From contig JANXER010000005.1 in the NCBI GenBank assembly GCA_025057955.1, forward strand, positions 1 to 63,222: a DNA stretch of 63,222 bases. The letters are read 5' to 3'. Under the pieces are notes generated by a model that worked only from the letters and a program-made list of their open reading frames with translations, did not search any database and had not been told where the DNA came from. This DNA is from Candidatus Methanomethylicaceae archaeon (GTDB taxonomy: Archaea; Thermoproteota; Methanomethylicia; Methanomethylicales; Methanomethylicaceae). Position numbers and translations under genes: made by a program. This document shows, in pieces, positions 3,256 through 63,222 of the stretch (the first letter of the stretch is position 1; every line of letters starts with the position of its first letter).

Positions 3256-4083
3256 ATGAAGAAATATACTTTATTATTTGCAATTTTCTTTTGGGGTGCA
3301 TCTTTTATATTTGTTAAAATTGGGCTTGAGGAAGTTCCTCCCATAAATCTTGCTCTTTTTAGATCGGCCACAGCTCTTCCAATTCTCTTTATTATTTCTG
3401 GATTTAGAAGAATTAAGAAAGAGTTTCTTCTGCTTGGTCTCATGGGAATAACTGGTTATCATTTATTTCAAAATTTGGGAATGATGAGCACTGGAGCAGC
3501 TGAGGCTAGTATAATAATTGCATCCAATCCAATTTTCATAGCAATTTTCAGTAGATTAATATTGAAGGAGAGGATTACTATAATTGAAGCATTGGGAATT
3601 GCCTTGGCATTTTTAGGAGTATTTATAATAATATTAAGAGAGGGCATGGGAAAAGGATCTTTTATTGGAAATTTACTTTGTTTAGGCTCGGTTTTCAGTT
3701 GGGTTGGTTACTCCATATATGGAAAAATTAAGCTTAGAAATTCAAATGCAAATGAAATAACTGCTTATTCCACTCTTTTTGGAACTATTTTTCTATTGCC
3801 AATAGCAATTGTGCTTGAGGGCATAGTAATTCCAAAATCCACAATGGCATGGATTTCAATAATTGCACTGGGAATTTTTTGCTCTGGATTAGCTTATCTA
3901 TTCTGGTATAAAGCGCTTGAAGATATGGATGTTTCAAAAGCAGGATTTTATTTATTTCTCATACCTGTGATATCCTCAATATTGGCTTTCTTCATATTAG
4001 GAGAGAGATTGGATTTTAAGTTTATAATAGGGGCCTTTCTTGTGATAATTGGTTTAATTCTTTCATCGAGGAGGAATTTTTGA
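3256..4083 (+). CDS. EamA/DMT-family transporter
   Basis: It has about 10 predicted TM helices in two EamA-like halves. I prefer the ATG at 3256 (MKKYTLLF) over the TTG at 3235 given in the track. Confidence 0.7.
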   Translation: MKKYTLLFAIFFWGASFIFVKIGLEEVPPINLALFRSATALPILFIISGFRRIKKEFLLLGLMGITGYHLFQNLGMMSTGAAEASIIIASNPIFIAIFSRLILKERITIIEALGIALAFLGVFIIILREGMGKGSFIGNLLCLGSVFSWVGYSIYGKIKLRNSNANEITAYSTLFGTIFLLPIAIVLEGIVIPKSTMAWISIIALGIFCSGLAYLFWYKALEDMDVSKAGFYLFLIPVISSILAFFILGERLDFKFIIGAFLVIIGLILSSRRNF

Positions 4084-4203
4084 ATAAGTCTTAATAATGC
4101 CTTGATTATATATAATTATTTATAAATTATTTATAATATGATTATAATTATATTGTTATTATTAATTAATAATTAAAAATTAAGAATTATTAAAAAGCTT
4201 ATT

Positions 4204-4280
4204 TGGAGCCCCAGAGGGGCTTTGAACCCCTGACCAACGGTTTACGAGACCGTCGCTCTACCGGGCTGAGCTACTGGGGC
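4204..4280 (-). tRNA. tRNA-Thr (anticodon CGU), CCA encoded
   Basis: The reverse complement folds as GCCCCAG-UA-GCUC..GAGC-G-ACGGU-CUCGUAA-ACCGU-UGGUC-AGGGG-UUCAAAG-CCCCU-CUGGGGC-U-CCA. All four stems pair. Confidence 0.9.
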
Positions 4281-7040: not shown

Positions 7041-7066
7041 ATAATAATAGAAGCTCCATATTCCTA

Positions 7067-7802: not shown

Positions 7803-7896
7803 TGGCGGGCCTGAAGGGATTTGAACCCTTGACCAGTGGGTTAAGAGCCTCGGCCGCTTAAGCGTCCACCGCTCTACCGTACTGAGCTACAGGCCC
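7803..7896 (-). tRNA. tRNA-Lys (anticodon CUU) with a 17-nt intron in the anticodon stem, CCA encoded
   Basis: The reverse complement is GGGCCUG-UA-GCUC-AGUACGGUA-GAGC-G-GUGG[ACGCUUAAGCGGCCGAG]G-CUCUUAA-CCCAC-UGGUC-AAGGG-UUCAAAU-CCCUU-CAGGCCC-G-CCA. Removing the bracketed segment restores a 5-bp anticodon stem and a loop with U33. Confidence 0.85.
7849..7865 (-). other. tRNA-Lys intron (position 30/31) inside a full hBHBh' splicing motif
   Basis: The outer helix is AGAG/CUCU and the central 4-bp helix is CGGU/GCCG. It is flanked by 3-nt bulges GG|A and AG|G on opposite strands, and the inner hairpin is CGC-UUAA-GCG. Confidence 0.75.
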
Positions 7897-47533: not shown

Positions 47534-47622
47534 GGGCCGGTAGCTCAGCTGGCAGAGCGCCCGCTTGGCGTTGTTATACACCAAAATGCGGGAGGCCACG
47601 GGTTCAAATCCCGTCCGGTCCA
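47534..47622 (+). tRNA. tRNA-Ala (anticodon GGC) with a 16-nt canonical intron; CCA not encoded
   Basis: It folds as GGGCCGG-UA-GCUC..GAGC-G-CCCGC-UUGGCG[intron]U-GCGGG-AGGCC-ACGGG-UUCAAAU-CCCGU-CCGGUCC-A. The G3:U70 identity pair is present, and the next bases are CUU. Confidence 0.9.
47571..47586 (+). other. tRNA-Ala intron at 37/38 with a canonical BHB motif
   Basis: The central helix UUGG/CCAA is flanked by bulges CG|U and AA|U. The inner helix is UGU/ACA and the outer helix is the anticodon stem. Confidence 0.8.
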
Positions 47623-49549: not shown

Positions 49550-49942
49550 TTATTCCAAAATACTCATCAATGAAAAGCTCATCTGTCTCACATTAGCGCT
49601 TGCCTTAAGTCCATCCATTAACTTCTTTAACTTCTCCACCCTTCCTTTTATTACCATTACTTCCAAACAATTTTTTTCATCTACATGAACGTGAACAAAT
49701 GCAATTATTATATCTCCGAATTCATGTTGTAATTTTTCTGTGGCCTTTTCTCCCTTTTCATAGAGGACGCTAAGTGTGCCAATTACTTCACCCTTTATGC
49801 TCTCCAAAGTTTTATGCTCATATATGTACTTTCTCAGAGCATGTCTCAAGATTTCTGATCGACTAATGTACCATTCTTTACTTAGCATTTTGTTTAACTC
49901 TTCCAAGAGTTCATCTGGAATAGATATGCTTACTATTACCAC
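49550..49942 (-). CDS. nikR: NikR-family nickel-responsive ribbon-helix-helix regulator
   Basis: It has an N-terminal RHH (VSISIPDELLEEL......SRSEILRHALRKYI). The C-terminal metal site is HEF...FVHVHVDEKNCLEVMVIKG, which matches the NikR H-x-H...C signature. Confidence 0.8.
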   Translation of the reverse strand: MVIVSISIPDELLEELNKMLSKEWYISRSEILRHALRKYIYEHKTLESIKGEVIGTLSVLYEKGEKATEKLQHEFGDIIIAFVHVHVDEKNCLEVMVIKGRVEKLKKLMDGLKASANVRQMSFSLMSILE

Positions 49943-50787
49943 CTCTTTCTCACCACTATTATCATATATATCAATAAGAGAATTAATACAATCATGGCTG
50001 AAGTTGCTATTCTATAGTATGCTGATATGATTATACCAGAGATTACTCCAATAATGGCTATTGTAATAGAGGAAATTAAGGTTTTTATGAAAGAGCATTT
50101 CAGTCTTAATGCTGCTAGAGCTGGTATTACCATAAGAGCTACGACTAACACTGTTCCAACCATCTTTATGGATAATATTATAGCAACTGCAATCATTAGA
50201 TTGAAGCATATTGAAATCCTTCTCACGGGTATTCCCATTATTTTCGCCTCATCCTCATTGAAGATAATGGCTAAAATCTCCCTATGAAAATTGCTTAGAA
50301 ATGCTGCTATAGAAGTTGCAAGCAAGGTTATCAAAATAATTTCCTCTCTACTTATTGTAAGTATGGAACCGAAGAGAAAAGAAAAGATATCAACACCAAA
50401 ACCTCTAGTTACACTAATTATAGCAAGGCCAATAGAGAATCCTACAGCTAACATGAGTGCAATGGCTGAATCCGAATAAGCATGCCCTTTACTTCTCATA
50501 TGGCTAATTAAAAATATTGAAATTATCGATACAATCAATGCTGTTAGAAATGGATCGATGCCTATTAAGAGACCAAGCGCTAATCCTCCAAAAGCCGTAT
50601 GAGCAGCTCCATCAACAATCATTGATTCCTTTTTGAGAACCAAGAATAGTCCTATCCATGCTGATATTATTCCTATTAATATTCCTCCAATAATTGCATT
50701 TTGAAAAAATTGATAATTAAGAAGTTCAATCAACAAATTCACCTCTACATTCATGTCTATGAAATACAAAGTAGAAGTGTTCTCCAT
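49936..50787 (-). CDS. Metal ABC transporter permease (ZnuB/TroC/MntB family)
   Basis: It has 8-9 TM helices and a family-typical length. It overlaps both neighbours, and the start may be M12 (50754). Confidence 0.8.
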   Translation of the reverse strand: MENTSTLYFIDMNVEVNLLIELLNYQFFQNAIIGGILIGIISAWIGLFLVLKKESMIVDGAAHTAFGGLALGLLIGIDPFLTALIVSIISIFLISHMRSKGHAYSDSAIALMLAVGFSIGLAIISVTRGFGVDIFSFLFGSILTISREEIILITLLATSIAAFLSNFHREILAIIFNEDEAKIMGIPVRRISICFNLMIAVAIILSIKMVGTVLVVALMVIPALAALRLKCSFIKTLISSITIAIIGVISGIIISAYYRIATSAMIVLILLLIYMIIVVRKRW

Positions 50788-51487
50788 AAGCCTTTCTTAA
50801 AACTTCTTCAGCTTCCTTTCCAACTTTTGCCACATAAACTTCTTTATTAACACATATCACCTTATTCATTTTACAAAATACTACAGATAAATCATGAGAT
50901 ACCATAAGTATGGTTACATTCATTTTATGATTTAATTCAGACATTTTTTGATAGAATTTTTCTTGAATCGATGCATCCATGCCAGCTATTGGCTCATCAA
51001 GTATTAATACCTCTGGCTTTCTTACTAAAGCTCTAGCTACGAACATTCTTTGCTTTTGTCCTTCTGAAAGCTCCCCTATTCTCTTATTTGCAACCTCAGC
51101 TAATCCCATGAATTCTAATGCTAAATCAACCTCCTCCCAATCCTCTCTATTAATTTTCCTTCCAGCCTTTCTTCCAAGCCTTCCAAGAACTACAAACTCT
51201 TTTACTGATAGAGGAAAATTTCTATCGAAATTTGTGGCATCTTGTGGTATGAATGCAATTCTATGCCAATCCTTGAAATCTTTCAACTCCTTTCCAAACC
51301 ACTTAATTGATCCACTAATTCTGGGAATTCTACCAAGTATAGCTAAAAGTAATGTAGTTTTTCCTCCACCATTCGGCCCAATAATTCCAATGTAATCTCC
51401 TTTTAGAACTTCAAATTCCGCTCCATCTATTACAATCCTTCCATTTCTTATCACTTTTAATTCCTTTACTTCTAAAACTTTCTCCAT
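50726..51487 (-). CDS. Metal ABC transporter ATP-binding protein (ZnuC/TroB family)
   Basis: It has Walker A GPNGGGKTT, the signature LSEGQKQR and Walker B LILDEP. Confidence 0.9.
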   Translation of the reverse strand: MEKVLEVKELKVIRNGRIVIDGAEFEVLKGDYIGIIGPNGGGKTTLLLAILGRIPRISGSIKWFGKELKDFKDWHRIAFIPQDATNFDRNFPLSVKEFVVLGRLGRKAGRKINREDWEEVDLALEFMGLAEVANKRIGELSEGQKQRMFVARALVRKPEVLILDEPIAGMDASIQEKFYQKMSELNHKMNVTILMVSHDLSVVFCKMNKVICVNKEVYVAKVGKEAEEVLRKAYGEHFYFVFHRHECRGEFVD

Positions 51488-51491
51488 ATTA

Positions 51492-52385
51492 TCATCCCAA
51501 TCCCTTCTTTAATGCCTTCAAATTTTCCTCAAGTTGTTCTAAATAGTCCTTTCCATCAATTGGCCCTAACATCAAGTAGAGCTCTTCTATTTCAACATTT
51601 GGGACTTCTTTTTTAATAGTTTCAATATAAGCCTTTGGATAAGTTGGATCAGTGTAAATTATCGTAATATTATGCTTTATAATTAAGTCTATTATTTCCT
51701 TAATTACTATAGCACTTGGCTCCTCCTCAGCTGAAATACCAATTACTCCAATTTGCTTAAAACCATATCTTACAGCTAAATAGCCAAAAGCTTCATGAGA
51801 AACAATAATTACTTCTCTTTTCTTATTCAAAAGCTCTTTTTGATATTTTAAGTCTAAATCTTCTAATTTAGTTTTCAATTCATTGAATCTTTCTTGATAA
51901 TAGCTCTTTCCTTTAGGATCCTTTTCCATAAGAGCAAGGAATATTTTCTCAGCTTGCCTCATGGCCATATAGGGAGAGATCCAAGTATGTGGATCAGTTT
52001 CACCATTATGCTCTATCAATGGAAGATCCTTCGTAGTATCTATTATTAATTTATCTCTTACGTTTACTAATTTCATTATTTCATACTTTAACCAATCATC
52101 CATTCCTGCTCCATTGATGACTACTACATCAGCTTTTTGCACCTCCAATATATCTGAAGGAGAGGGCTGCCAATGATGAGGATCCACGTTATAAGGTATT
52201 AATGTTGTTACTGTTATTCTTTCTCCTCCTATTTTCTCAGTTAAGTAAGCTAAGGGATAGAAGGTTACTACTACTCTTATTTTACCTTCATTTATCAAAT
52301 ATGGATTAGGGGATGTGAATATAAGTGCTATAATAGATGCCATAATAGATGCTAAAATAATCAAAGCAATTATGCGCCCTTTCAT
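51492..52385 (-). CDS. Metal ABC transporter substrate-binding protein (cluster A-I, ZnuA/TroA/MntC family)
   Basis: It has an N-terminal anchor and the motifs DPHHWQPSP and DPHTWISP. A long linking helix pattern connects to a second lobe carrying SHEAFGYL. Confidence 0.85.
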   Translation of the reverse strand: MKGRIIALIILASIMASIIALIFTSPNPYLINEGKIRVVVTFYPLAYLTEKIGGERITVTTLIPYNVDPHHWQPSPSDILEVQKADVVVINGAGMDDWLKYEIMKLVNVRDKLIIDTTKDLPLIEHNGETDPHTWISPYMAMRQAEKIFLALMEKDPKGKSYYQERFNELKTKLEDLDLKYQKELLNKKREVIIVSHEAFGYLAVRYGFKQIGVIGISAEEEPSAIVIKEIIDLIIKHNITIIYTDPTYPKAYIETIKKEVPNVEIEELYLMLGPIDGKDYLEQLEENLKALKKGLG

Positions 52386-52508: not shown

Positions 52509-53369
52509 ATGGCTGATAGACCGAGATTTGGACCAGCAGGAATTCCACCCTCTTTTAGGGAAATGAAAGCAAGCCTTCTAGATGTTCCAAGATTATTGAG
52601 AGAAGAGGGTCTTGATGCTTTTGAATATCAAGCTGTTCGCTGGGGGGAAAAACCTCAGATAAAACAGAAGGATGCTGAGGCCTTTGGAATAAAAGCTAAA
52701 GAAAATGATGTGATTTTAAGTATTCATGCCTCATATTTTATCAATTTTTGCGGAAATAAAGATATAGTAAGAGCAAGTAGAAATAGATTGATAGCATGTG
52801 CTTTAGCCTCAAATTGGATGAGAGCTAGTCCAGTAGTTTTTCATGTTGGATACTATGGTGGAAGAAGCCCAAGGGAAACTCTTGAGCATTGTAAGAATGA
52901 GCTAAAGAGTTTAGTTGAAGAGCTTAAGTCAATGGGTATAAATTCAAGCCTAGGTCCGGAGACCATGGGGAAACTTTCTCAATTTGGATCTCTTGAGGAA
53001 ATAATATCACTTTGTGAACACATTGAAGGTCTGAAACCAGTAATAGATTGGGCTCATTTACATGCAAGAGATGTTGGAAAATTTAAAACTATAGAGGATT
53101 ATAGAGAGGTTTTAATTACTATAGAGAATAGGCTTGGATCAGAGTATCTTAAAGACTTACATTGTCACTTCACAAAAATAGAGTTTACAAATAAAGGAGA
53201 GAGGCAACATCATACTTTAGATGAAGAGGGTTATGGGCCTAATTTTGAACTATTAGCTGAAGTAATTATAGAGTTTAAAATTGCTCCAATAATAATAAGT
53301 GAAAGTCCAGTGCTTGATGTTGATGCTATAAAAATGAAGAATATCTTAATGAAAAAAATGAAATTTTAG
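52509..53369 (+). CDS. nfo: Endonuclease IV-like xylose-isomerase-fold TIM-barrel protein
   Basis: It has the motifs SIHASYFINF, VVFHVGYY, GPETMG, DWAHLHA and LHCHF, which resemble AP endonuclease family 2 metal ligands. Confidence 0.6.
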   Translation: MADRPRFGPAGIPPSFREMKASLLDVPRLLREEGLDAFEYQAVRWGEKPQIKQKDAEAFGIKAKENDVILSIHASYFINFCGNKDIVRASRNRLIACALASNWMRASPVVFHVGYYGGRSPRETLEHCKNELKSLVEELKSMGINSSLGPETMGKLSQFGSLEEIISLCEHIEGLKPVIDWAHLHARDVGKFKTIEDYREVLITIENRLGSEYLKDLHCHFTKIEFTNKGERQHHTLDEEGYGPNFELLAEVIIEFKIAPIIISESPVLDVDAIKMKNILMKKMKF

Positions 53370-53623
53370 AGACCTGCTTCTCTCAAGGCCTCCCTTAAAG
53401 TCTCCTCACTTGGGCAAACGCCTATTATTCTTATGTCCTTATCTATAACAATGGCTGGGCCCATCTCTATGCCATATTCATTGAGCTTTGGATTAATTCC
53501 TCTATAGATTTCAATTTCTATTCTATCTTTGTATTCTTCCTTTATTTTCTCTATAAGTTTAAGTAAGTTTCTTCCTCCTGAACATGGAGGCTCTGATACA
53601 AATACTTCAACCTTTATTGCCAT
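53366..53623 (-). CDS. Thioredoxin-fold small protein, paralog B (CSGG instead of CxxC)
   Basis: MAIKVEVFVSEPPCSGGRNLL... aligns with the upstream paralog but lacks the second Cys. I prefer the start at 53623, just after the upstream stop. Confidence 0.6.
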   Translation of the reverse strand: MAIKVEVFVSEPPCSGGRNLLKLIEKIKEEYKDRIEIEIYRGINPKLNEYGIEMGPAIVIDKDIRIIGVCPSEETLREALREAGL

Positions 53624-53625
53624 AA

Positions 53626-53895
53626 TTACACCCCCATTTCCTTCAATGCATTTTCTATAGTTTTCATGCTGGGGCAAACTCCCATGATCTTTATTTTACC
53701 TTCATTAAACACAATGGCTGGAACTACTGTTAATCCATATTTTTTGAACTCCTCACAAGGTCCCATGTGTTTTATCACTTCTACTCTATCTCCATATTTG
53801 CTTTTTATTATATCGCAGTATTCTAAGAGCTTAGCACAGCCTGGACATGGCGGTTGGGCTGTAAATGCCTCTACCTTAACCACCATATTACTCAC
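53626..53895 (-). CDS. Thioredoxin-fold small protein, paralog A (CPGC active site)
   Basis: It has VKVEAFTAQPPCPGCAKLLEY...VPAIVFNEGKIKIMGVCPS, a redox-active-disulfide-protein-like layout. Confidence 0.65.
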   Translation of the reverse strand: MSNMVVKVEAFTAQPPCPGCAKLLEYCDIIKSKYGDRVEVIKHMGPCEEFKKYGLTVVPAIVFNEGKIKIMGVCPSMKTIENALKEMGV

Positions 53896-53987: not shown

Positions 53988-56900
53988 ATGATGAATATAA
54001 AACATTTTGTATTTTTACTTACCACTGTTTCTTTACTTACTATTGTTTTCTCAGTACAACCAATATTGGCTTATTCCGAGAGCCAATATATACCATATTC
54101 TAACTTTAATTTCATATATAATTTATCTCCTGCTGGATTAGATGAAGGTCAAAAAATTGGATTCATTCAAAATCACCCTATTCGTGAAAATATTGCGGAA
54201 TGGGGTTGGTTTAATCTTCGTGTCAGGGCATATGCAGCAACCCCCATAGGTGGAACACAGCCCTATAGACCTAATGTTAATGTTACAGCTGAGCTATATT
54301 ATTCAGGAAGCTTTTGGCGTCCATTTAGCTATGTTGAATCTAGAACGATAAATCCATCTATTGAGGTTTTAGATTTTAAAATACCATATGATCCATTTGG
54401 CAATCAAATAGGAAATTCTAGTTATGGATATTCAACGCTTAGCATGAATACATCGGGAAGTATGAACTATAGTATTAGGCTAGCTCAATTATATGCCTCA
54501 GCAGATTATTGGTTTAGCAATCATGAAGCTCTCTTTGAATGGGCTGTAGCGGATGTTAAATTGAAAATGATTACAGGGGCAATTTTAACATTTTATTGGA
54601 CTGAGATTGCTTCAATTCAATGTTCTTCAAGCCCTTCAGTGGGTTATCCTATATTGTTTATAGCCATGATAAGGGATGGTGTGCCTCCTTATAATATTAA
54701 ATGGAATTTTGAGGGGCGAATAATTGAACAACAAGTACAAGGAAAAATAGGAGAGAGTGTTTTCACAAGCATACAATATACCTTTACAACACCTGGTAAT
54801 TATAATATAACTTTAACAGCAATAGATTCCATGGGAATTTCAGATACAAAGTGGATTTTGATTAAAGTTTCTTCAGTTTATTTAACCATACAAACATCCA
54901 TAGGTGGAACAACAAACCCTCCTCCTGGCATATATAGCTATATGAAGGGTGAGCAGATTTCCATTCAAGCTCTGCCAAGCCCTGAATATGTATTGGGTTG
55001 GTGGGAATTGGATGGTGTTATTTCTGGGGATGAGGATTCCTTTCGTATCATTATGGATAGAAATCATACAGTTAAAGCGATTTTTGTACAAAGGCTTATT
55101 GCATCATTAACAGCAGCCCCCTCCTTTGGATTAGTTCCATTAAATACAACATTCACATGTATTACATCTGGAGGCCTTTCGCCCTATAGCTATGAATTGG
55201 AATTTGGGGATTCAGGCGTTTTTATTTTGAATCAGAGCAATTTTACGACGATTCAAACTTGGCATGTTTACTCTCAAGCTGGAAATTATAATGCTAAATT
55301 AACTATAGTGGACTCTATGGGAAGAAAAGGCTATGCTTCTACAACAGTAATAGTTCAAAATCCCTTGGGGTTGGATATAACACTTTCGAAATCAAATGAT
55401 ATAATTATAGCTCCTGGACAAACTGGGACATCTATTATATATGTAAATGCATCAAGAGCAGAACCTGTTTTACTTTCAATGCAATGGATTGGAAATGTAC
55501 CAGCTGATGTATTTTCATCAATAAATCCAACGTCATTAATTCCAAATGGAACTGCCATGCTTATAATATCAGCAGATTCAAAAACTCCATTGGGCAATTA
55601 CGTTTGTAGAATTATAGGTACTGCTGGAAATACTACAGCATATGTGGATGTTCATGTAAGTATATTACAGCGAATCTATTATCTTACAATATCTTCAGCT
55701 AATGGTGGAACTACAGAACCACCTCCTGGAATATATGCTCATCCATCTGGATCGATTGTTCATATAAAGGCAATTCCAAATGTGAATTGGAGTTTATCTG
55801 CTTGGAGAGTTGATGGATTGTTATCTGGGGGTAATGAGGTTTTAATTATAAAAATGGATGGAAATAGAACCATACAACCAATATTCCTTCAGAATAACTT
55901 TTCTCAATCACAATTTATTATTGATGTAAAATATTTTGAAGCAGGTGTATGGAGATCTGGCTCACAGAGTAATCCATTGGATTTCTCAAAATATGGAGCA
56001 GTGAAATGGAACATAAGTAATATAGAACTTCTATCTCCCATCACCATATCTACAACTTTAGGATCTCAAATTTCCATTCAATTTGATCCATTAAATACAG
56101 ATAATAAGTTTATTAGCACTTGGGGGGGAAAGCCAAAATCAAAAGTATGGTCAGCTAGATTATATACAACAAGCGGCAGCTATAATAATGATATATTACC
56201 TTCACTAATAACATATCCTTCTTCTTATTCGGCTATAGTTCTTCCACCTTCATCAATATTAGAAATAAAATTGAAGTGGATGGATTATCCTATAAATGTT
56301 ACATGCAATGCCCCTTGGGGCTATGTTTATGTTACATCAAATTCCCCAGGATGGGAGCTATATGATTATTCAAAGTATGAAAATGGATTTGGAGTTTATT
56401 ATGTAGATCATGGACATAAATTTTCCATTACCGCCATACCTTTTACAGGATATTATCTTGATAGAATTGAGGTTAATGGAACATGTTATTATAGAGATTA
56501 CGTTATAATTGAGGATGTGAGGGCGCCCCATGATATTAAAGTCTATTTCTCAGCCATTTCACCCACATTTATTTTGACAATTATTTCTACCGAGGGTGGA
56601 ACAACAATTCCATCACCTGGCAATTACGCTGTACCGCGCTATAGCACTCAAACCATTAAAGCTCAAGTTATAAATGCATCGTATTATTTCACAGGTTGGA
56701 TGGTTAATGGATTTCCAGCGGGTTTGAATGATAGCATTTCAATCTATATGGATGGGGATAAAATAGCTATGGCAACCTTCGATACAGATTTGCTAGCGCT
56801 TGTAGGACCATGTAGTCTCATCAATGGAAATATGTTCAAAAGAGTGATTATAAATGAAAAATTTGGAATTAATGTGACATGGCAAGTGCCAGGGGTTAAA

Positions 56901-57995
56901 CAGCCAACTTTGATTCAAGTAACAGCATGGCTTGATTCAATGGGTGCATGGTGGTGGAATGGTAAAAAGTTCATGAATACTACATATAAATTCAATGGAA
57001 GTGTGATGACAGATTCACAAGGAAAATTTACAATAAGATTTGGCTCTTTAGATGAAGTATTTTATACCACAGCAGAGGATGCAAAAGTTGGAGAGAAATT
57101 TTATGCCTATGCTAATATCACCGTGGGCTCAAATACATATAATTTAATAAGCGTTTGGAGAATTGATAACATAATGCCTTGGATGATCTTCAATTATAAT
57201 TTAACTGGAGTAAATGCAACAGTTTATTTCAAATATTCTACAGATGGATCACCAATAAAGGGTAGAGCTGGATATTATGCAGCATCTATAAGCATTTATC
57301 CACCAATAGTAAATAATCAATTTAAAAGTGAAAGATTATCTACACCTTGTGATGAAAATGGAAAATCATGGTTGTGGATTCCTTATTCAGAAATGAAACA
57401 AATTAGAAGAGGAAATGCCAGCATTATAGTTTGGGATTTAACAAGAAGATTCAATTCAAATAATGAAACCATATATTTTGCCATAACATGGGCCATAAGA
57501 ACAAATGTAACCTATTCAGCTATAGCAGCAATGATATTCTTTTTCAATGCCACTCATATGCTAATTGAACCAATAGATTGGGGAAGTTCTAATTTATTAC
57601 CAATAGAGAATGCATATGCTTATCTCTATTGGGATACATATGAACATCCCTTCAATGGAAGAAATGGACTTATAGGCATATTTGGGCCATCCAAAATAAT
57701 ACCAATAATTAAGGAGGAATGGCAGAAGTATAGAGCATATTTAAATATCAATGGAACTCCATGGCCTATATTTAACAATATAAAATTGAGTCCATTGAAG
57801 AATAGTATAGCAGCAATAGTCCTTCAATATCCCAATGCATATGAATTGATTTATGATAATGTTAATGCGCCAAAGCGCTTATATCTATTCCTAGTGCCAG
57901 GGTTTACAGAAGGGATATTATATAATCCAGCCGTGGAAATGCCAGATATCATTTTCCATAAACCTCATAATGAAGAGGAATTGTATAATTCCTGA
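53988..57995 (+). CDS. Giant secreted surface protein: signal peptide, 2 PKD-like domains, 3 InlB-B-repeat-like modules, ~470-aa C-terminal region of unknown fold
   Basis: The signal is FVFLLTTVSLLTIVFSVQPILAYS. The PKD-like blocks end in YTFTTPGNYNITLTAIDSMG and HVYSQAGNYNAKLTIVDSMG. Three modules share LTI.....GGTT.PPPG.Y.....(I.A.P)...W..DG (about nt 54876-55082, 55677-55884 and 56566-56790). It has many N-x-S/T sequons. Confidence 0.8.
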   Translation: MMNIKHFVFLLTTVSLLTIVFSVQPILAYSESQYIPYSNFNFIYNLSPAGLDEGQKIGFIQNHPIRENIAEWGWFNLRVRAYAATPIGGTQPYRPNVNVTAELYYSGSFWRPFSYVESRTINPSIEVLDFKIPYDPFGNQIGNSSYGYSTLSMNTSGSMNYSIRLAQLYASADYWFSNHEALFEWAVADVKLKMITGAILTFYWTEIASIQCSSSPSVGYPILFIAMIRDGVPPYNIKWNFEGRIIEQQVQGKIGESVFTSIQYTFTTPGNYNITLTAIDSMGISDTKWILIKVSSVYLTIQTSIGGTTNPPPGIYSYMKGEQISIQALPSPEYVLGWWELDGVISGDEDSFRIIMDRNHTVKAIFVQRLIASLTAAPSFGLVPLNTTFTCITSGGLSPYSYELEFGDSGVFILNQSNFTTIQTWHVYSQAGNYNAKLTIVDSMGRKGYASTTVIVQNPLGLDITLSKSNDIIIAPGQTGTSIIYVNASRAEPVLLSMQWIGNVPADVFSSINPTSLIPNGTAMLIISADSKTPLGNYVCRIIGTAGNTTAYVDVHVSILQRIYYLTISSANGGTTEPPPGIYAHPSGSIVHIKAIPNVNWSLSAWRVDGLLSGGNEVLIIKMDGNRTIQPIFLQNNFSQSQFIIDVKYFEAGVWRSGSQSNPLDFSKYGAVKWNISNIELLSPITISTTLGSQISIQFDPLNTDNKFISTWGGKPKSKVWSARLYTTSGSYNNDILPSLITYPSSYSAIVLPPSSILEIKLKWMDYPINVTCNAPWGYVYVTSNSPGWELYDYSKYENGFGVYYVDHGHKFSITAIPFTGYYLDRIEVNGTCYYRDYVIIEDVRAPHDIKVYFSAISPTFILTIISTEGGTTIPSPGNYAVPRYSTQTIKAQVINASYYFTGWMVNGFPAGLNDSISIYMDGDKIAMATFDTDLLALVGPCSLINGNMFKRVIINEKFGINVTWQVPGVKQPTLIQVTAWLDSMGAWWWNGKKFMNTTYKFNGSVMTDSQGKFTIRFGSLDEVFYTTAEDAKVGEKFYAYANITVGSNTYNLISVWRIDNIMPWMIFNYNLTGVNATVYFKYSTDGSPIKGRAGYYAASISIYPPIVNNQFKSERLSTPCDENGKSWLWIPYSEMKQIRRGNASIIVWDLTRRFNSNNETIYFAITWAIRTNVTYSAIAAMIFFFNATHMLIEPIDWGSSNLLPIENAYAYLYWDTYEHPFNGRNGLIGIFGPSKIIPIIKEEWQKYRAYLNINGTPWPIFNNIKLSPLKNSIAAIVLQYPNAYELIYDNVNAPKRLYLFLVPGFTEGILYNPAVEMPDIIFHKPHNEEELYNS

Positions 57996-58035
57996 TTTTA
58001 AATTTGTTTTTAAATTATAAATTTAGGATGATTAT

Positions 58036-58716
58036 ATGGAGCATGCTTTAAGCACTGCTATTATAACAGTGGCATTAATAGCTATATCTATTTCAGCCAT
58101 GGGAATAGCATATACATATGCCTTACAAATACAAGATGCTCCAATATTAGCATTAAGATCTAAAATTTTTGAAATAGCTGCTGCTCTAGAGCAAGCATCT
58201 TCCCTTGAAATAAAGAGGAGCGTTCATGGCATTAGCATGGGAAGATTTATAATGGAAAGCATTGACATGGGATATTTCAATATAACATTGGAACTTCCTG
58301 GAGGCATTTATGAAATTAAACTTAATAGAATTGCACTAAAGGGATTGGGTATTATTGAATCCTTTGGAAATAGTTTCAACTTTGGTCAACCTTCCATAAG
58401 AGTTTTGAATAATGAATTCATAGTTCCTTCCATAGGAATAAGCTATTTTGGAACTGATGTGGAAATGAACTCAAACCTTCACACAATAGTATTGAGAATA
58501 CCCTTAATTCAAAATTTCAAGGCCTCAGGAACATTTACAATGAATATAATTCCTATGGACAAAAAATATGAAACTCATGTTTTTGAATTATCTCAAGAAG
58601 GCTTAGTAAACTTGAGAATTGATGGTGAACATGCTCTAAGCATTAATGTTAAGATAGGAGATAAAATAAAAATCGTGGTAAATTACATTCTAATAAAATT
58701 GGAGAAACATTTATGA
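58036..58716 (+). CDS. Type IV pilin-like protein with a class III signal peptide-like N-terminus
   Basis: Its N-terminus MEHALSTAIITVALIAISISAMGIAYTYAL resembles the archaeal pilin N-terminal domain. It starts 40 nt after the giant ORF on the same strand. Confidence 0.5.
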   Translation: MEHALSTAIITVALIAISISAMGIAYTYALQIQDAPILALRSKIFEIAAALEQASSLEIKRSVHGISMGRFIMESIDMGYFNITLELPGGIYEIKLNRIALKGLGIIESFGNSFNFGQPSIRVLNNEFIVPSIGISYFGTDVEMNSNLHTIVLRIPLIQNFKASGTFTMNIIPMDKKYETHVFELSQEGLVNLRIDGEHALSINVKIGDKIKIVVNYILIKLEKHL

Positions 58717-58732
58717 AAAACCTTTTAATTTA

Positions 58733-59149
58733 TCATAATTCACGTGGATCTATTCTTTTTATCCCTGGTACATTGTCAAAAATATTATCGGTTGAGATAA
58801 TGGTTCGATCTGATACTTTGTTAAGCACTGTGGCTGCATAATAGGCATCGAAAATTGAGCTAATATTATATTGTTTCATTAATGCTAAAGCCAATAAATC
58901 AATTTCATAAGTTGTTTCTAAGAAAATTAAATTATCTATAGTTATTAGAGCTGAAAGTCTATATATAATTTCATCAATAGAAATTCCCTCAGCCCTTGAA
59001 ACATAATATATTTCATGAAGACTTTCTCTTGAAGCATAAATCTTGCCTAAATCTCCTCTTACGATCTTAGTCATAATCTTATTGGCTATTGGCTTAAGCC
59101 AATCATCCTTCTTAATATAGGCATAGAGTATATCAGTTTCAACCATCAA
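58733..59149 (-). CDS. vapC: PIN-domain toxin VapC
   Basis: The acidic residues fall in a PIN layout: VETDIL, LHEIYY, SIFDAYYAA and ISTDNIFD. It overlaps vapB by 4 nt. Confidence 0.8.
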   Translation of the reverse strand: MMVETDILYAYIKKDDWLKPIANKIMTKIVRGDLGKIYASRESLHEIYYVSRAEGISIDEIIYRLSALITIDNLIFLETTYEIDLLALALMKQYNISSIFDAYYAATVLNKVSDRTIISTDNIFDNVPGIKRIDPREL

Positions 59150-59394
59150 AGTTGTTTTCTCCTCCTTGCTCTTTTAATGGCATCTTCACCAGCCATTTTC
59201 TCTGCTATAGCTTTAAGTTCCTTTTCACTTTTCTCAGTAGTCAACCATCCCTTAGCTTCTTCATGTGGAACCTTCGGAAGAGGGATGGTGACAAAAAATG
59301 ATCCAGCTGGTATGACTATGACTTTAGTTTCTTTTATTCCAAATTCCTTCGGAATTGTCATTCTTCCTCTTTCATCAACCTTAACTATGGCCAT
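59146..59394 (-). CDS. vapB: AbrB/SpoVT-family antitoxin VapB
   Basis: MAIVKVDERGRMTIPKEF is the swapped-hairpin barrel motif. I prefer the start at 59394 over the track start at 59442. Confidence 0.8.
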   Translation of the reverse strand: MAIVKVDERGRMTIPKEFGIKETKVIVIPAGSFFVTIPLPKVPHEEAKGWLTTEKSEKELKAIAEKMAGEDAIKRARRRKQL

Positions 59395-59529
59395 ATAATC
59401 CCCAAAATAAAAGTTAATCCCAAAAATATAAATATTACCCATATATAGTAATTTTTCCCATTATTTATTTTTAATATTAGCTTTGAAAAATTACCATTTA
59501 ATTCCTTCTTTGGTTCTTCAATTGCCTTA

Positions 59530-60166
59530 TTATATAACTTCAATGTTAAGATTAATCCTATAATCAAAACTATGGATTCTATGGTAATTAATATTACTTT
59601 GTGTAAATTGATATATTAAAGTATCAATAGTTCCATGAATTACAATTATCAATATTAATCCTAAAATTCCCTTCTTCTTAACCATATCTACCATAAATAT
59701 AGTGCTACCAGTATGAAACATTGTTGCTGAAAACCTTTCTAAAGCTGATATCATATATATTGGTATAGTTAGCCCAGCTGCTACTGAAGCAATTAATCCA
59801 GAAACTCCAATATGGAATGCCTCTGTTAATCCAAACCCCAATCCAATATTTAAAGCTCCAGTATATGATTTATTCCTTATAAATATGTATTTAAAGCCAG
59901 ATCGCACCAAACCTGCTATAAGCCATAATGAAATGCCAACCATAAATCCTTGGCTTAAAATTAATTTCATAGCCTCTTCTTGATTTACATTATTGAAGAG
60001 TATTATTAATAATATTGACAATTGTTGAATTAAAGATTGAACAATTATAGAAATGAAGAATATGAAAAGACCTAGGAGAATTTCTCCTCAATTTCCTAAA
60101 GCCAAGAGAGCGAAGAAGGATTAATCCAACTAATCCTCCTAAAATTGGAAATAAAATCATCCACAT
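59530..60166 (-). pseudogene. YhfC-like polytopic membrane protein with an apparent frameshift near 60075-60090
   Basis: The N-terminal 57-codon frame (MWMILFPILGGLVGLILLRSLGFRKL..., 60166-59993) is followed in the +1 frame by EILLGLFIFFISIIVQSLIQQLSILLIILF..., which continues into ORF 59530-60021. The blocks GLGFGLTEAF, LERFSATMFH and IHGTIDTL resemble YhfC-family blocks, though some catalytic residues appear substituted. Confidence 0.45.
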
Positions 60167-60175
60167 AATGGTACC

Positions 60176-60505
60176 TTACTCTTTTTCTATAACTACAGCA
60201 GTTCCATATGCGTATATTTCAGCCATCCTTGTACTAATAGTAGCAGTTGCAAATCTAAATCCTATTATAGCATTTGCACCCATATCTTTAGCTGATTTCA
60301 CAAGCCTTTTAATAGCCTCTTCTCTTGCTTCTGCAAGAAGTTGTGTATATTCCTTTATTTCTCCTCCAGCAATATTTCTAAGTGCAGCCATTATATCTCT
60401 ACCAAGGTGTGTAGCTCTTACAACACCACCCTTAGCAATACCCTTTATCTCTTTTATCCTATATCCAGGAATAGTATCAGTTGTAACTAATATTATATCC
60501 TCCAT
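60176..60505 (-). CDS. YbjQ/UPF0145-family protein
   Basis: It has ILVTTDTIPGYRI.E..G.A.G..V and a C-terminal AIIGFRF....I......YGTAV pattern. I prefer the start MEDIILV (60505). Confidence 0.75.
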   Translation of the reverse strand: MEDIILVTTDTIPGYRIKEIKGIAKGGVVRATHLGRDIMAALRNIAGGEIKEYTQLLAEAREEAIKRLVKSAKDMGANAIIGFRFATATISTRMAEIYAYGTAVVIEKE

Positions 60506-60620
60506 ATCTTTCACCAATAGAATGAAGTGAGCTTCATATATTAAAGGATTTAATTGATGAATTTCTTATTTTTTGAAAACCACTTTTTAAATTTCCATGT
60601 ATTGATATAATTGAGCGACC

Positions 60621-61010
60621 ATGCATAAGCCTCTAACTGAAATTATAGCAATAATTACCTCTCTTTCAATGGGTTCAATATTAATAGGATTAACTTATGT
60701 TCAAGGAATAAGTGCATCCATAGTTGCTGAAGAGATAACAGCAGCTTCATTAGCATCCTCAATAGCATCAACATGTATTCAAAGTGTAGAAATGGCTAGA
60801 ATACAAGGTAATTCAGTAAGCATAATAATGCTTTTTTCAAAACCTATTATAATAAATACTAATAATTGTTTAATATCTTGTACACTAACATCCTCATTTG
60901 CCACAGTTTACATTAATGCTAGTTTGAATATTGTTGATTTCAAAGGAATGGTAAATTATCTCAATATTACAGCATATCCAAATGGAATGGTGATTATAAC
61001 TGGTGGATAG
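60621..61010 (+). CDS. Small pilin-like protein (class III signal peptide-like N-terminus)
   Basis: The N-terminus is MHKPLTEIIAIITSLSMGSILIGLTYV, followed by a Ser/Thr/Ile-rich beta-type region. It is 129 aa. Confidence 0.45.
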   Translation: MHKPLTEIIAIITSLSMGSILIGLTYVQGISASIVAEEITAASLASSIASTCIQSVEMARIQGNSVSIIMLFSKPIIINTNNCLISCTLTSSFATVYINASLNIVDFKGMVNYLNITAYPNGMVIITGG

Positions 61011-61029
61011 ATAATGGAGCGATTGAAAT

Positions 61030-61452
61030 ATGGATAAGCCCATAGAGATGGTTATGGCTTTTACAATATTTCTTTTAGCATTTTTCTTTGTATACACTAT
61101 AGGATTAGGATTATATACAGCTGGAATAAATGCAAAGATTTCATCCATACTTACATCAATGGCTGAGGCAACAGCCTCAACAATAATATTGCAAAATGGA
61201 GCATCTTCATCACTATGGCAATTATGGAATCCAGAAATAATTCCCACCATAAATATTATTCATCCATCATATTTGATAATAAAGCCAAAAATAAGCTTGA
61301 AGGCAACATGTTTCGGAGATGAAGGAGAAATATTATGGATTAAGGGAAGTGAAGCAAAAACTGAGGTAAAAACTCCTATTGGAAGTGCTTTTAGATTCTT
61401 AATTTTAGATAATGGAAATGCTGTGAAGCTAGAGGTGTATATAATTGGATAA
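61030..61452 (+). CDS. Small pilin-like protein (class III signal peptide-like N-terminus)
   Basis: The N-terminus is MDKPIEMVMAFTIFLLAFFFVYTIGLGLY. It is 140 aa and overlaps the next gene by 8 nt. Confidence 0.45.
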   Translation: MDKPIEMVMAFTIFLLAFFFVYTIGLGLYTAGINAKISSILTSMAEATASTIILQNGASSSLWQLWNPEIIPTINIIHPSYLIIKPKISLKATCFGDEGEILWIKGSEAKTEVKTPIGSAFRFLILDNGNAVKLEVYIIG

Positions 61453-61855
61453 TTTACTAAATAATAAGGGAATTACACTTATGTATGATGCAATATTTGC
61501 ATGTATAATCATGTTTTTTGCCTTGGCAATTTTTGCAAATTCAATTCCTCGACCCATTTTAATTCAAAAAGATCTAAGTGAATATGCTAATTCAGTTTTA
61601 ATATGGATGGATTCCAAGGGATTATTAACTAAATGCATTTATGAGGAAGATTTAAAGCTACTATCCTCTATTCTCAATAAACTTTGTCCTAAAAATTACA
61701 GGCTTGAGGTATATTCATTAGAAGGAACTTTATTATGGTCTTATACATCTTCTGGATTCGATTTTGATAGATCGTCAGCCTCCCAACAATATCTATTGAT
61801 AAGCTATCAAGGAATTCCCAGCCCTAGGTTTGTGATTTTAAAAATTTCGCCTTAA
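61445..61855 (+). CDS. Small pilin-like protein (KG|I putative prepilin cleavage context)
   Basis: The N-terminus is MDNLLNNKGITLMYDAIFACIIMFFALAIFA, a short polar leader ending in KG followed by about 22 hydrophobic residues. Confidence 0.5.
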   Translation: MDNLLNNKGITLMYDAIFACIIMFFALAIFANSIPRPILIQKDLSEYANSVLIWMDSKGLLTKCIYEEDLKLLSSILNKLCPKNYRLEVYSLEGTLLWSYTSSGFDFDRSSASQQYLLISYQGIPSPRFVILKISP

Positions 61856-61877
61856 AAATTTCCATTCGATTATCCCT

Positions 61878-62345
61878 TTGGGGAGAATTTTGGTATTACT
61901 TGAGAAAATATTGAACAAAGGTCTTACAACTCCACTCAGCACTATTATAATAGTAATTTCCATGCTTACCATTAATTCTATAGTATTTACAAAGGCATTT
62001 ACTATAGCCCTCAACCTATGGCAAGAGATTAACTCAAGACAACAAGATGTTATCCTACTTCATAATACAATAATTGGAATTTCATTATCTAATCCCGGCA
62101 GCTCTTCAATAGTTTATTTAAGGCCTCATTCCTCAATAATTTGCACTAATTCATCTATAAAGTATCCAATTTCATTTGAAGCGAGAGCTCCAGCTGGAAC
62201 GATAATTGCTGTAGAAAGAACTTCTACTTACACCATAGTCAAATATGCTATGAGGATTAATCCCTTCATCATACCTTCAGGCCAAGTTAAAGTTGTTGTA
62301 AGTAAAAATATTGATGGTTCAATATCTGTGGATGTGAAAATATGA
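61878..62345 (+). CDS. Small pilin-like protein (KG|L putative prepilin cleavage context)
   Basis: It reads ...LNKGLTTPLSTIIIVISMLTINSIVF. An alternative TTG start at 61911 would give (M)NKGLTTPL..., parallel to the next gene's MNKGFSLS. Confidence 0.5.
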   Translation: MGRILVLLEKILNKGLTTPLSTIIIVISMLTINSIVFTKAFTIALNLWQEINSRQQDVILLHNTIIGISLSNPGSSSIVYLRPHSSIICTNSSIKYPISFEARAPAGTIIAVERTSTYTIVKYAMRINPFIIPSGQVKVVVSKNIDGSISVDVKI

Positions 62346-63109
62346 ACAAGGGCTTTTCTCTTTCAATATCAGCTCTAATAATGATGCTTATTCTCATTTC
62401 ATTTGCTGTATCAATTCAATCCATGGACAATGATATATTCATTATAAACTTAAATGATTCACGAATGAAAATTCAAAGATCTCTAATAGCGGAATTACTA
62501 CTGGCTGAAATGAAAGGTATTAGAGATCATTTACAGAATGTTTCAGGATTATTTATTAATATAACTAAAGCTCATTTACCTCCTCCATCAGGAATAATAA
62601 CAAAGATTGTTAATGGAACTGGAGGAAATCCATATAAAGTCACTGTGATGGCCTCAGAAGGAGCGATTATAGTTATTACAGATAGCCAATATATAGTCAA
62701 AGCCATTGAAGTTATTCCATTCGGAAGAGGTTTCATTGATTTAATGCTTCCATCCGAAATAATTTCATCTGGCTGTCTTTTAATATATGATTCACTGCCA
62801 ATTTATACTTATTTAGGAAACATCAGCCCCTCTTTAAATTATACAGTAATAAGACATCCCCCCTCCATTATTTCAACATCATGGTCTCCTCCTCAAGGAT
62901 TTAATCAAATTTTATTGCATGGGGCCCCTCCTCTCTCACTAATAGAGCTCGCTGTAAATTTGCAAAGAGTATATGCAGTCATGGATCTAACATCAACTTT
63001 AATAGCCATAAGTGGGCCATTCGGAAGTGGAAGCATTCATGTAAGAATTCCCATGAGTTGGTATTATGGCGATATAAAGAGTGGTGATGTTTATTTATAC
63101 TATCCATAA
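62342..63109 (+). CDS. Pilin-like protein, largest of the set (KG|F putative prepilin cleavage context)
   Basis: The N-terminus is MNKGFSLSISALIMMLILISFAVSI. The start overlaps the upstream stop (ATGA), and the protein is 255 aa. Confidence 0.5.
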   Translation: MNKGFSLSISALIMMLILISFAVSIQSMDNDIFIINLNDSRMKIQRSLIAELLLAEMKGIRDHLQNVSGLFINITKAHLPPPSGIITKIVNGTGGNPYKVTVMASEGAIIVITDSQYIVKAIEVIPFGRGFIDLMLPSEIISSGCLLIYDSLPIYTYLGNISPSLNYTVIRHPPSIISTSWSPPQGFNQILLHGAPPLSLIELAVNLQRVYAVMDLTSTLIAISGPFGSGSIHVRIPMSWYYGDIKSGDVYLYYP

Positions 63110-63136
63110 TAAAATCACAATAATTACAATAGTTCT

Positions 63137-63222
63137 AATGATTTTCTCTCCTATATCGCTTGCCTCTAATAATTTTACCATAATTTATTTGAGCGATGTT
63201 AAGCTCGATTTGAGCGGAGGAA
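63137..63222 (+). CDS. 5' end of a further ORF continuing past the window edge
   Basis: The ATG at 63137 opens MIFSPISLASNNFTIIYLSDVKLDLSGG... with no stop before the window end. It is too short to classify. Confidence 0.3.

Follow-up and report, generated by a model that had tools for sequence, protein, structure and literature searches.

Seven plus-strand genes at the 3′ end of a 63,222-nucleotide (nt) contig from a Candidatus Methanomethylicaceae archaeon (positions 53988 to 63222 of JANXER010000005.1, assembly GCA_025057955.1) raise the question of which surface system they serve: one encodes a giant secreted protein, six encode small proteins with a hydrophobic N-terminus, and no ATPase that could assemble a filament lies in view. 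An earlier note on this DNA had read them as a surface-filament or adhesion locus of unusual composition. The whole contig, referred to here as the window, was compared with the sister assembly GCA_033582615.1 (contigs L001 and L005) and with orthologous loci from further lineages. In this comparison the stretch 53988–63222 emerged as most probably the 5′ part of a conserved archaeal type IV pilus cluster of ~25 kb, found in Methanomethylicaceae-type Thermoproteota. The reading is built on gene content, synteny, N-terminal motifs and family-level identities, all of which were established directly. Hardly any work exists on the surface appendages and DNA exchange of Methanomethylicia (methanogens of Thermoproteota that reduce methyl compounds, with their relatives), and the locus provides a parts list of 16–20 genes, several of them from unnamed families.

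All seven open reading frames (ORFs) of the earlier note were recovered at the same positions. The locus opens with the gene for a secreted protein of 1335 amino acids (aa) containing Pfam domains (53988..57995), followed by the gene for a 226-aa protein without a Pfam or NCBIfam family (58036..58716). After an interruption come five closely packed genes, encoding a 129-aa pilin-like protein recognised by hydropathy (60621..61010), a 140-aa pilin-like protein supported by alignment (61030..61452), and three minor-pilin candidates of 136 aa (61445..61855; FlaFind-like match and alignments), 155 aa (61878..62345; LNKG/LTTPLSTIIIV, where the slash marks the predicted cleavage site, as below) and 255 aa (62342..63109; FlaFind-like match), all on the plus strand. 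The overlaps and ~20-bp gaps described for the last five genes are real: starting with a gap, spacings of 19 and 22 nt alternate with overlaps of 8 and 4 nt. Treating the seven genes as one set is justified by their order, which is kept across lineages, but not by contiguity, because four minus-strand genes fill 58733–60517 after the 226-aa gene. The locus does continue past the 3′ edge as had been proposed, but not from a new ORF at 63137: the ATG there lies at 63138, and the likelier start is the ATG at 63087. The latter overlaps the 255-aa gene, is the start called in the sister assembly and yields a Sec-type signal (SPISLA/SNNFT), so that the window holds the first 45 codons of a secreted protein of ~941 aa before the contig ends (63087..63222, plus strand; ORF and sister assembly).

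Extension past position 63222 brings the ATPase, the platform protein and a canonical major pilin into view ~3 kb beyond the edge in the sister assembly. Over the final 3000 nt of the window, contig L001 (3.4 kb) shows 0 mismatches; it runs 433 nt further, and its end shares 9 nt with the start of the 33-kb contig L005, the predicted join between JAVQRL010000028 and JAVQRL010000015 (read from the contig ends, as the scripted test took only overlaps >10 nt). The joined 941-aa gene, 190 codons from the window/L001 side and 751 from the start of L005, gives a protein sequence continuous with its L002 orthologue, and its orthologues measure 940–946 aa. Behind it L005 encodes a 142-aa pilin with the N-terminus RG/DISSPIIV, a T2SSE ATPase of 497 aa, a 564-aa T2SSF platform and a 568-aa protein; next come proteins of 623 aa (polytopic) and 220 aa and, with 608 aa, an ATPase matching DUF87, AAA_10 and the TraG P-loop. 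The window organism has these downstream genes just past its contig end. Within the window, the reported absence of ATPase, platform and prepilin peptidase held up. tblastn with relatives' ATPase, platform, pilin and type IV secretion system-type proteins gave no match there, and the window ORFs with at least four predicted membrane segments, judged by eye to be an EamA-like transporter, UppP, a P-type ATPase and an ABC permease, include none with a GxGD motif. The ATPase is missing from the 63-kb contig because the contig break falls ~3 kb before its gene, a reminder for annotation that contig ends can hide diagnostic genes: the 'absent' ATPase sits on the next contig.

The same arrangement recurs in five lineages, designated A (the window, L001 and L005), B (L002), C (L006, L003, L007), D (L013, L016, L019) and the GC-rich E (L008, L011, L014); further loci were reached by a metagenome scan with an alignment of the 570-aa family. 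The order runs from the giant protein through the 226-, 129-, 140-, 136-, 155- and 255-aa proteins to the ~941-aa secreted protein, then one or two major pilins (132–143 aa, [KR]G/DISSPIIVILVTVAALAVAG) and the FlaI-family ATPase, followed by an UpsF-like platform; next comes a surface protein of ~570 aa, which has a Sec signal and is anchored in the membrane by its C-terminus. The proposed co-localisation of the giant gene with the small ones is thereby borne out, as the giant, the 226-aa and the five small genes keep their order with orthologues 31–60% identical. For the 255-aa protein, identity to the window is 81% in lineage B, 48–50% in C and 31–34% in E, and for the 136-aa protein it is 41% in D (42% by BLASTP). 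Homologues of the cluster are labelled Candidatus Methanomethylicaceae archaeon, phylum Thermoproteota. The complex cluster is not universal in the family, since Methanosuratincola has a three-gene version only, with pilin, ATPase and platform; its ATPase is 46% identical.

The proposal of a type IV filament system is strengthened by the adjoining ATPase, platform and canonical major pilin in the sister assembly and four more lineages. The ATPase, present in the sister assembly and all orthologous loci, matched Pfam T2SSE with 109 bits (cut-off 24.9), and scored 248–264 bits with the FlaI model and 170–175 bits with BasE, below all named equivalog cut-offs. The platform scored 96–132 bits with NCBIfam UpsF (cut-off 400) and 36.3 bits with Pfam T2SSF (cut-off 25.2). 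The major pilin matched UpsA with an E value of 2e-7 and 19–31 bits against a cut-off of 130. Its profile, near full length, also retrieved from the PDB 8q30 (E 0.006; 'DUF4352 domain-containing protein') and 6w8u (E 0.037; 'pilin'), which we take to be pili of Sulfolobus and Pyrobaculum. The ATPase and platform encoded beyond the window, together with pilins bearing class III-type sites of predicted cleavage (the major pilin and the 136-, 155- and 255-aa families), place the system in the type IV filament superfamily.

None of the named archaeal systems accommodates it. UpsA and UpsF are its closest named relatives, though both matches remain below their equivalog cut-offs, which excludes it from the Ups pili. 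For an archaellum, the FlaI score falls short of the cut-off of 550, and archaellin, FlaH and FlaX had no match in any locus. The Bas models were likewise not reached (BasE, cut-off 1000; BasF, 48–66 bits versus 1300; BasA, 16.7 versus 230). As judged from these family scores, the system is an archaeal type IV pilus outside the named systems Ups, Aap, Bas and archaellum.

The N-termini divide the small proteins of the window into two groups. The common layout noticed earlier, a short leader and an N-terminal hydrophobic helix, is present in all six: each has one strongly hydrophobic segment that starts within the first 20 residues (maximal 19-aa Kyte–Doolittle value 1.9–2.6), and no second. 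The three K-G sites of the 136-, 155- and 255-aa proteins are real as well. A FlaFind-like regular expression, modelled on Szabo et al. 2007 and run on all 99 window ORFs of at least 80 aa, matched only the 136- and 255-aa proteins, and the 155-aa protein (NKG/LTTP) missed it solely by a Pro at +4. As the expression matched nowhere else in the window, the K-G sites are specific to the locus and not an accident of AT-rich composition (GC 0.31–0.38). Basic leaders that vary in length and end in [KR]G are found in the major-pilin, 136-, 155- and 255-aa families of nearly all lineages read; leaders of this kind, with the Gly at −1 held constant, mark the substrates of prepilin peptidases. The 129-, 140- and 226-aa families instead have fixed four-residue N-termini, MH[KR]P, M[DE][KQ][PSA] and M[EH]H[AV] respectively, again in nearly all lineages read. 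Class III sites, ascribed earlier to all six, thus hold for the 136-, 155- and 255-aa proteins but not for the other three. Their N-termini are free of glycine, and they could be either minor pilins of an atypical kind or single-pass proteins that stay uncleaved at the base of the pilus.

The 136-aa protein is the best-conserved small protein of the cluster. Its [KR]G-terminated leader is followed by ITLMYD, the Tyr-Asp at +5/+6 being invariant across lineages, and only 16 clusters at 90% identity were found among 5.8 billion proteins. An exhaustive profile search widened the family to 54 representative clusters with N-termini of the form [KR]G/xxR[IV]x[ED], which carry an acidic residue at +6; 40 members compared with Pfam gave five weak DUF7288 matches (best E 0.017). 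An AlphaFold model from 15 sequences (pLDDT 83.7) predicts an N-terminal helix (residues 5–33) and an alpha/beta head, the general 'lollipop' layout. The 255-aa protein (MNKG/FSLSISALIMM) has a beta-rich body and an invariant C-terminal motif, IKSGDVY. Its family comprises only 3 clusters among the 5.8 billion proteins (word-based search), and its AlphaFold model was poor (pLDDT 52.7). The 155-aa protein starts at TTG 61878 or, following the gene call of the sister assembly, 12 nt downstream, and its orthologues in L008, L011 and L014 are 378–401 aa long, with an inserted Laminin_G_3 lectin-type domain and the same C-terminal motif. Between the 136-aa and 155-aa orthologues, lineage E encodes an extra 86–97-aa protein with DnaJ-type CxxCxGxG zinc-finger motifs (L011 3177–3464, L008 196–456, L014 11368–11661), which has no place in the window.

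In the 129-aa protein, MHKP precedes a membrane helix and the C-terminus carries the conserved motif NITAYPNG; orthologues occur in L002, L006, L016, L011 and L014. The 140-aa protein begins with MDKP and continues with IE and a membrane helix. Its position 4 is P, S or A across lineages, and Glu6 is invariant in a four-sequence alignment and present in all seven orthologues read. The L003 orthologue (3794–4214) is called as fragments of 73 and 62 aa; the gene is intact (137 aa) in the near-identical L006, and the split is likely a frameshift or assembly error. Pfam and NCBIfam hold no family for any of the small proteins, and a FlaF/FlaG-like nature was discarded, no such model having matched.

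Downstream of the 570-aa gene, on the same strand and with small gaps or overlaps, the cluster passes into genes for a polytopic protein, a PrgI-like protein and a VirB4-type ATPase. The ATPase (607–616 aa) is the most firmly placed of these, with matches to NCBIfam VirB4_plasma (7.5e-46) and the CD1110 family (1.4e-40) that reach well upstream of the ATPase core, to PDB 4ag5 (E 2.6e-19), and to Pfam P-loop_TraG (54 bits, cut-off 25.8) and AAA_10 (46 bits, cut-off 27.5). The 607-aa protein aligns over 99% of its length with the VirB4/TrbE proteins of Sulfolobus conjugative plasmids at 29–31% identity, and with that of Thermococcus pT33-3 at 27%. By these similarities the downstream ATPase is a genuine VirB4 relative, at family level only because its scores lie below the equivalog cut-offs. 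It is 62–65% identical between lineage A or C and lineage D, and better conserved than the pilin-like genes. The 212–220-aa protein matched PrgI with 21.9–22.2 bits (cut-off 27; E 2e-4) in two lineages, has T[PL]RQ as a conserved motif ahead of its first membrane helix, and gave nothing meaningful in a PDB profile search; PrgI is the VirB3 equivalent of monoderm systems. The polytopic protein (554–629 aa) is possibly VirB6, a role that its position and topology fit. A weak Pfam TrbL match below the cut-off (E 0.003) was seen in one of five orthologues, and a PDB profile search with the family returned nothing relevant.

Lineage D adds genes for an Ssb-like OB-fold protein and a VirD4-like protein, the latter matching TrwB_AAD_bind with 31 bits (cut-off 20.5) and the CD1115 family at 2.7e-10. 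These two genes occupy the position at which lineages A and C have, directly after the VirB4-like gene, a gene with a methyl-accepting chemotaxis signalling domain. In L005 (12751–13683) the chemotaxis-domain gene is complete, matches strongly and encodes a 310-aa protein that looks soluble; in L006 (19197–19673) it is cut by the locus end and matches weakly. No relaxase was seen in the loci, and none is known for archaeal conjugative plasmids (PMC12857230). A VirB6-like gene follows the 570-aa gene in L015, too. In the distant metagenome loci L022–L033, a relative of the N-terminal domain of the 570-aa protein occurs with VirB6-like, VirB4, VirD4 and PrgI relatives, distributed over several loci, and no type IV pilus ATPase was found there. 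Because its relatives accompany the VirB4 set in these loci without a pilus ATPase, the 570-aa protein probably belongs to the transfer module, and the Methanomethylicaceae cluster would therefore be a fusion of two modules. One of these distant loci, L029, carries VirD4, PrgI, VirB4 and a relative of the 570-aa protein without a pilus ATPase, and encodes a Peptidase_A24 prepilin peptidase of 262 aa (6253–7041, minus strand) beside a TBP gene (5665–6249, plus strand), so that some component of that transfer module may have a class III signal peptide.

As the cluster runs unbroken from the pilus genes into the polytopic protein, the PrgI/VirB3-like protein and the VirB4-type ATPase, its gene order suggests that the pilus serves cell–cell contact for DNA transfer, beyond surface adhesion alone. 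A further step can be proposed only tentatively, and with less than even confidence: pilus and VirB4 module may constitute one chromosomal DNA-transfer apparatus, in which the pilus would replace the missing VirB2-type pilus, and the giant protein and the lectin-bearing minor pilins would set partner specificity. If true, a single gene cluster would cover the work that Sulfolobales divide between two distinct systems, Ups and Ced.

An overlapping but unlikely explanation is that the cluster is conjugation machinery derived from a mobile element (an integrated conjugative element or what is left of one after domestication), with the type IV pilus as its mating pilus in the manner of PAPI-1 and R64. 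It differs from the favoured reading in that the element would be mobile and the pilus dedicated to self-transfer. The closeness of the VirB4-like protein to those of archaeal conjugative plasmids speaks for it, as do the VirD4-like coupling protein and SSB of lineage D, the variation of flanking genes between lineages and the toxin–antitoxin pair inside the window locus. Moreover, loci lacking the pilus hold the 570-aa-like, VirB6-like, VirB4, VirD4 and PrgI set, so that the module travels as a unit, and hybrids of type IV pili with VirB4/VirD4 have been described (PMC12857230). However, none of the loci retrieved showed an integrase, attachment-site repeats or replication genes, no VirD4 occurs in the DNA in view of lineages A and C, and the GC content of the locus (0.31–0.35) equals that of the window. 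The flanks are of a housekeeping type (nuoH in L016, TFIIB and Cren7 in L014, thioredoxins and AP endonuclease in the window), and the divergence of the cluster genes looks like that of vertical descent. Recent horizontal acquisition of the locus was also considered and rejected, the GC content being without deviation.

The giant protein, likely an adhesin or surface protein of the cluster, has a Sec-type signal (VQPILA/YSES) followed by two PKD and three InlB-B-repeat (Flg_new_2) stretches above Pfam cut-offs (Flg_new_2 4e-16, PKD 3e-11, PKD_4 4e-11). The ~700 aa after these domains match no family, and the protein, with 32 N-glycosylation sequons and no membrane anchor, found no match among PDB sequences. 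In L006, L013 and L014, full-length orthologues of the giant gene (42–60% identical from end to end) directly precede the 226-aa gene, and the two genes abut in lineages C, D and E. The 226-aa protein consists of the N-terminus MEHA, one membrane helix and a beta-rich body without a canonical class III site, and is either pilin-like or a membrane-anchored accessory protein. Its orthologues follow the giant gene in L006, L003, L013, L016 and L014; in L011 its C-terminal part can be made out. Directly upstream of the giant gene, L013 (3933–4682) and L014 (2689–3459) encode a secreted protein of 249–256 aa, 48–53% identical between lineages D and E, for which tblastn detected no counterpart in the window.

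Whether the giant protein, perhaps with the 226-aa protein, is instead an S-layer or canopy protein merely encoded beside pilus genes was weighed against this, and appears improbable. A 1335-aa protein with a Sec signal and 32 sequons but no anchor would fit such a role and recalls SlaA-type S-layer proteins, and in the window the giant and 226-aa pair is set apart by the minus-strand island and has its own TATA-like element. S-layer-like proteins are, in addition, encoded in type IV pilus loci (Makarova et al., PMC4858521). In contrast, PKD and InlB-B-repeat domains are typical of adhesins, and the giant gene is tightly linked to the 226-aa and pilin-like genes in four lineages, with distances of 13–150 nt or a 4-nt overlap; nor does the simple Methanosuratincola locus have a giant gene beside it. 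A filament-less pseudopilus or bindosome-type system, exporting or positioning the giant, 941-aa and 570-aa proteins in the envelope, is highly improbable: weak NCBIfam similarity to BasA, BasC, BasE and BasF of Sulfolobus, many pilin-like genes per one major pilin and three large secreted proteins in the operon would favour it, but these large proteins have Sec-type signals and not the class III signals that bindosome substrates carry, the major pilin is highly conserved and resembles solved filament-forming archaeal pilins near full length, and UpsA and UpsF outscore the Bas models for pilin and platform.

Under the favoured pilus reading, a PibD/FlaK-type peptidase encoded elsewhere would cut the major pilin and the 136-, 155- and 255-aa proteins after [KR]G, and the ATPase and platform would polymerise the 132–143-aa pilin into a filament. 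The low-abundance pilin-like proteins could form a priming or tip complex, which would carry the Sec-exported non-pilin 941-aa protein, and possibly the giant protein too, as adhesins, while the 129-, 140- and 226-aa proteins would contribute as atypically processed minor pilins or as uncleaved single-pass proteins at the base. Adhesion is suggested for the 941-aa and 155-aa proteins because their orthologues carry DUF2341 and Laminin_G_3. The L008 orthologue of the former, 2119 aa long, contains DUF2341, and DUF2341 proteins have been given a PilY-like tip role in archaeal type IV pili (Makarova et al. 2016, PMC4858521), which makes the 941-aa protein a candidate non-pilin tip adhesin in a PilY1-like role. 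The proposed priming or tip complex is modelled on the bacterial minor-pilin/PilY1 complex and on the Makarova model. The pilus would finally bring cells together, with DNA transfer via the VirB4 machine.

Several observations weigh against this account. No filament has been observed; the window itself lacks the ATPase, the platform, the major pilin and the peptidase, so that the link to them runs via the sister assembly and the orthologous loci. No prepilin peptidase was found in the 63-kb window or the orthologous loci, and the opposite-strand island of 1.9 kb splits the operon in the window. None of the 129-, 140- and 226-aa family members has a glycine within the N-terminal four residues in any lineage read. 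The three small families compared with the major pilin shared no sequence similarity with it, and the one confident model matched no known pilin head. Specifically, hhalign assigned a probability of at most 2.5% to each pairing of the 129-, 140- or 136-aa family with the major pilin, and likewise to the pairing of the 129- and 140-aa families. PDB profile searches with the 255-aa family and with small and large alignments of the 136-aa family retrieved nothing meaningful. Foldseek placed no pilin near the head of the 136-aa model (best E 0.047, TM-score <0.45) and listed only weak PAS/Cache-like and ribosomal-protein matches, so the expected lollipop pilin fold was found in its helix-plus-head layout but not in a known pilin head. 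In the downstream module, the identity of VirB6 depends on the one weak TrbL match among five members (E 0.003).

The interrupting island (58733..60517, minus strand, 1.9 kb; Pfam) comprises four genes outside the pilus system, namely a PIN/VapC toxin (58733–59149), an AbrB/MazE-like antitoxin (59146–59442), a truncated YhfC-type intramembrane metalloprotease of 163 aa (59530–60021) and YbjQ (60176–60517). The YhfC-type ORF matches best over profile positions 145–205 of 222 and is probably a truncated gene or remnant. In lineages C and D the island is missing and the 226-aa/129-aa junction is a gap of 52–75 nt; YbjQ is found at the same position also in L001, and lineage E has another gene there (175 aa, plus strand). 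The junction looks like a recurrent insertion point.

Other neighbours of the locus deserve brief mention. Just upstream of the giant gene, the window has two tandem Thioredoxin_3 genes (53366–53895, minus strand; 103 and 89 aa, 52-nt overlap), and the simple pilus locus of Methanosuratincola likewise has a thioredoxin-like gene nearby (L009 14464–14760). A few kb upstream of the lineage E cluster, L014 encodes a TFIIB-family protein and Cren7 (1–653 and 2324–2467). In Sulfolobales the TFB paralogue TFB3 controls ups and ced; the L014 gene may be a housekeeping TFB, so the parallel is only a lead. Three adjoining genes at 49936–52385 (minus strand) resemble, by eye, a ZnuABC-type metal ABC transporter with permease, ATPase and substrate-binding protein. 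Farther off, two tRNA genes of 89–94 nt (7803–7896 and 47534–47622), probably intron-bearing, were found by Rfam; ARAGORN reported one with undetermined anticodon and missed the other.

Among known systems, a close counterpart in gene content is the archaeal type IV pilus as modelled by Makarova et al. (2016, PMC4858521), which combines five or more minor pilins with a PilY-like adhesin of large size and a protein of S-layer-like type. The composition that had struck the earlier note as unusual is ordinary for archaea, because that model has the same parts. Shared with its loci, especially those of the crenarchaeal 'clade 4', are a FlaI/VirB11-family ATPase, a TadC/FlaJ-like platform, a short major pilin and fast-evolving minor pilins, together with a large signal-peptide adhesin, in some cases carrying DUF2341, and an S-layer-like protein that is membrane-anchored at its C-terminus. 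In contrast to those loci, the small families described here match no Pfam or NCBIfam entry, the host lineage lies outside that census, a PKD/B-repeat giant heads the cluster and a VirB4-type module follows it; neither 'VirB4' nor 'conjugat' occurs in the text of PMC4858521.

Ups pili make the cell–cell contact for Ced DNA exchange in Sulfolobales, and the Ups and Ced/Ted systems of Sulfolobales and Thermoproteales resemble the present cluster in pairing a type IV pilus with a chromosomal DNA-transfer module derived from VirB4/VirB6. UpsA and UpsF are also the best named matches here, far below the equivalog cut-offs. However, the cluster encodes a full VirB4 and not the split CedB/CedD (CedB 22 bits, cut-off 700; CedD 43 bits, cut-off 600), no VirB2-like pilin (CedA1/TedC) was recognised and no Ted model appeared among the NCBIfam matches, which leaves it outside Ced and Ted. 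Unlike in the Ups/Ced pair, both modules stand in line on one strand.

Two bacterial comparisons can be drawn. The type IVa priming complex (FimU-PilVWXE with PilY1) likewise combines five or six pilin-like genes with a large Sec-exported non-pilin, but as no similarity of sequence or fold was detected the analogy is one of gene content only. In PAPI-1 of Pseudomonas aeruginosa and the IncI plasmid R64, a type IV pilus works with conjugation ATPases (PMC12857230), much as a type IV pilus is here encoded with VirB4, and with VirD4 in lineage D. Those are bacterial mobile elements, whereas the present cluster is archaeal and apparently chromosomal, has no relaxase or integrase in view, and encodes ATPases of archaeal-plasmid/monoderm type. 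The 607-aa ATPase, whose gene lies outside the window, in turn resembles VirB4/TrbE of the Sulfolobus plasmids pNOB8, pKEF9, pHVE14 and pING1 and of Thermococcus pT33-3 (99% length, 27–31% identity, E 1e-52 to 2e-55). No type IV pilus cluster is known from these conjugative plasmids.

Taken together, what looks new is the host lineage, several rare and unnamed protein families, the giant that heads the cluster and the one-strand linkage to a VirB4 module of archaeal-plasmid type; a limited search of the literature found no description of such a type IV pilus/VirB4 linkage. If pilus and VirB4 cooperate, the cluster would parallel, in archaea, the hybrids of type IV pili and conjugation ATPases known from bacteria and offer a third solution, beside Ced and Ted, for chromosomal DNA exchange in Thermoproteota, and would bear on how conjugation machinery is domesticated.

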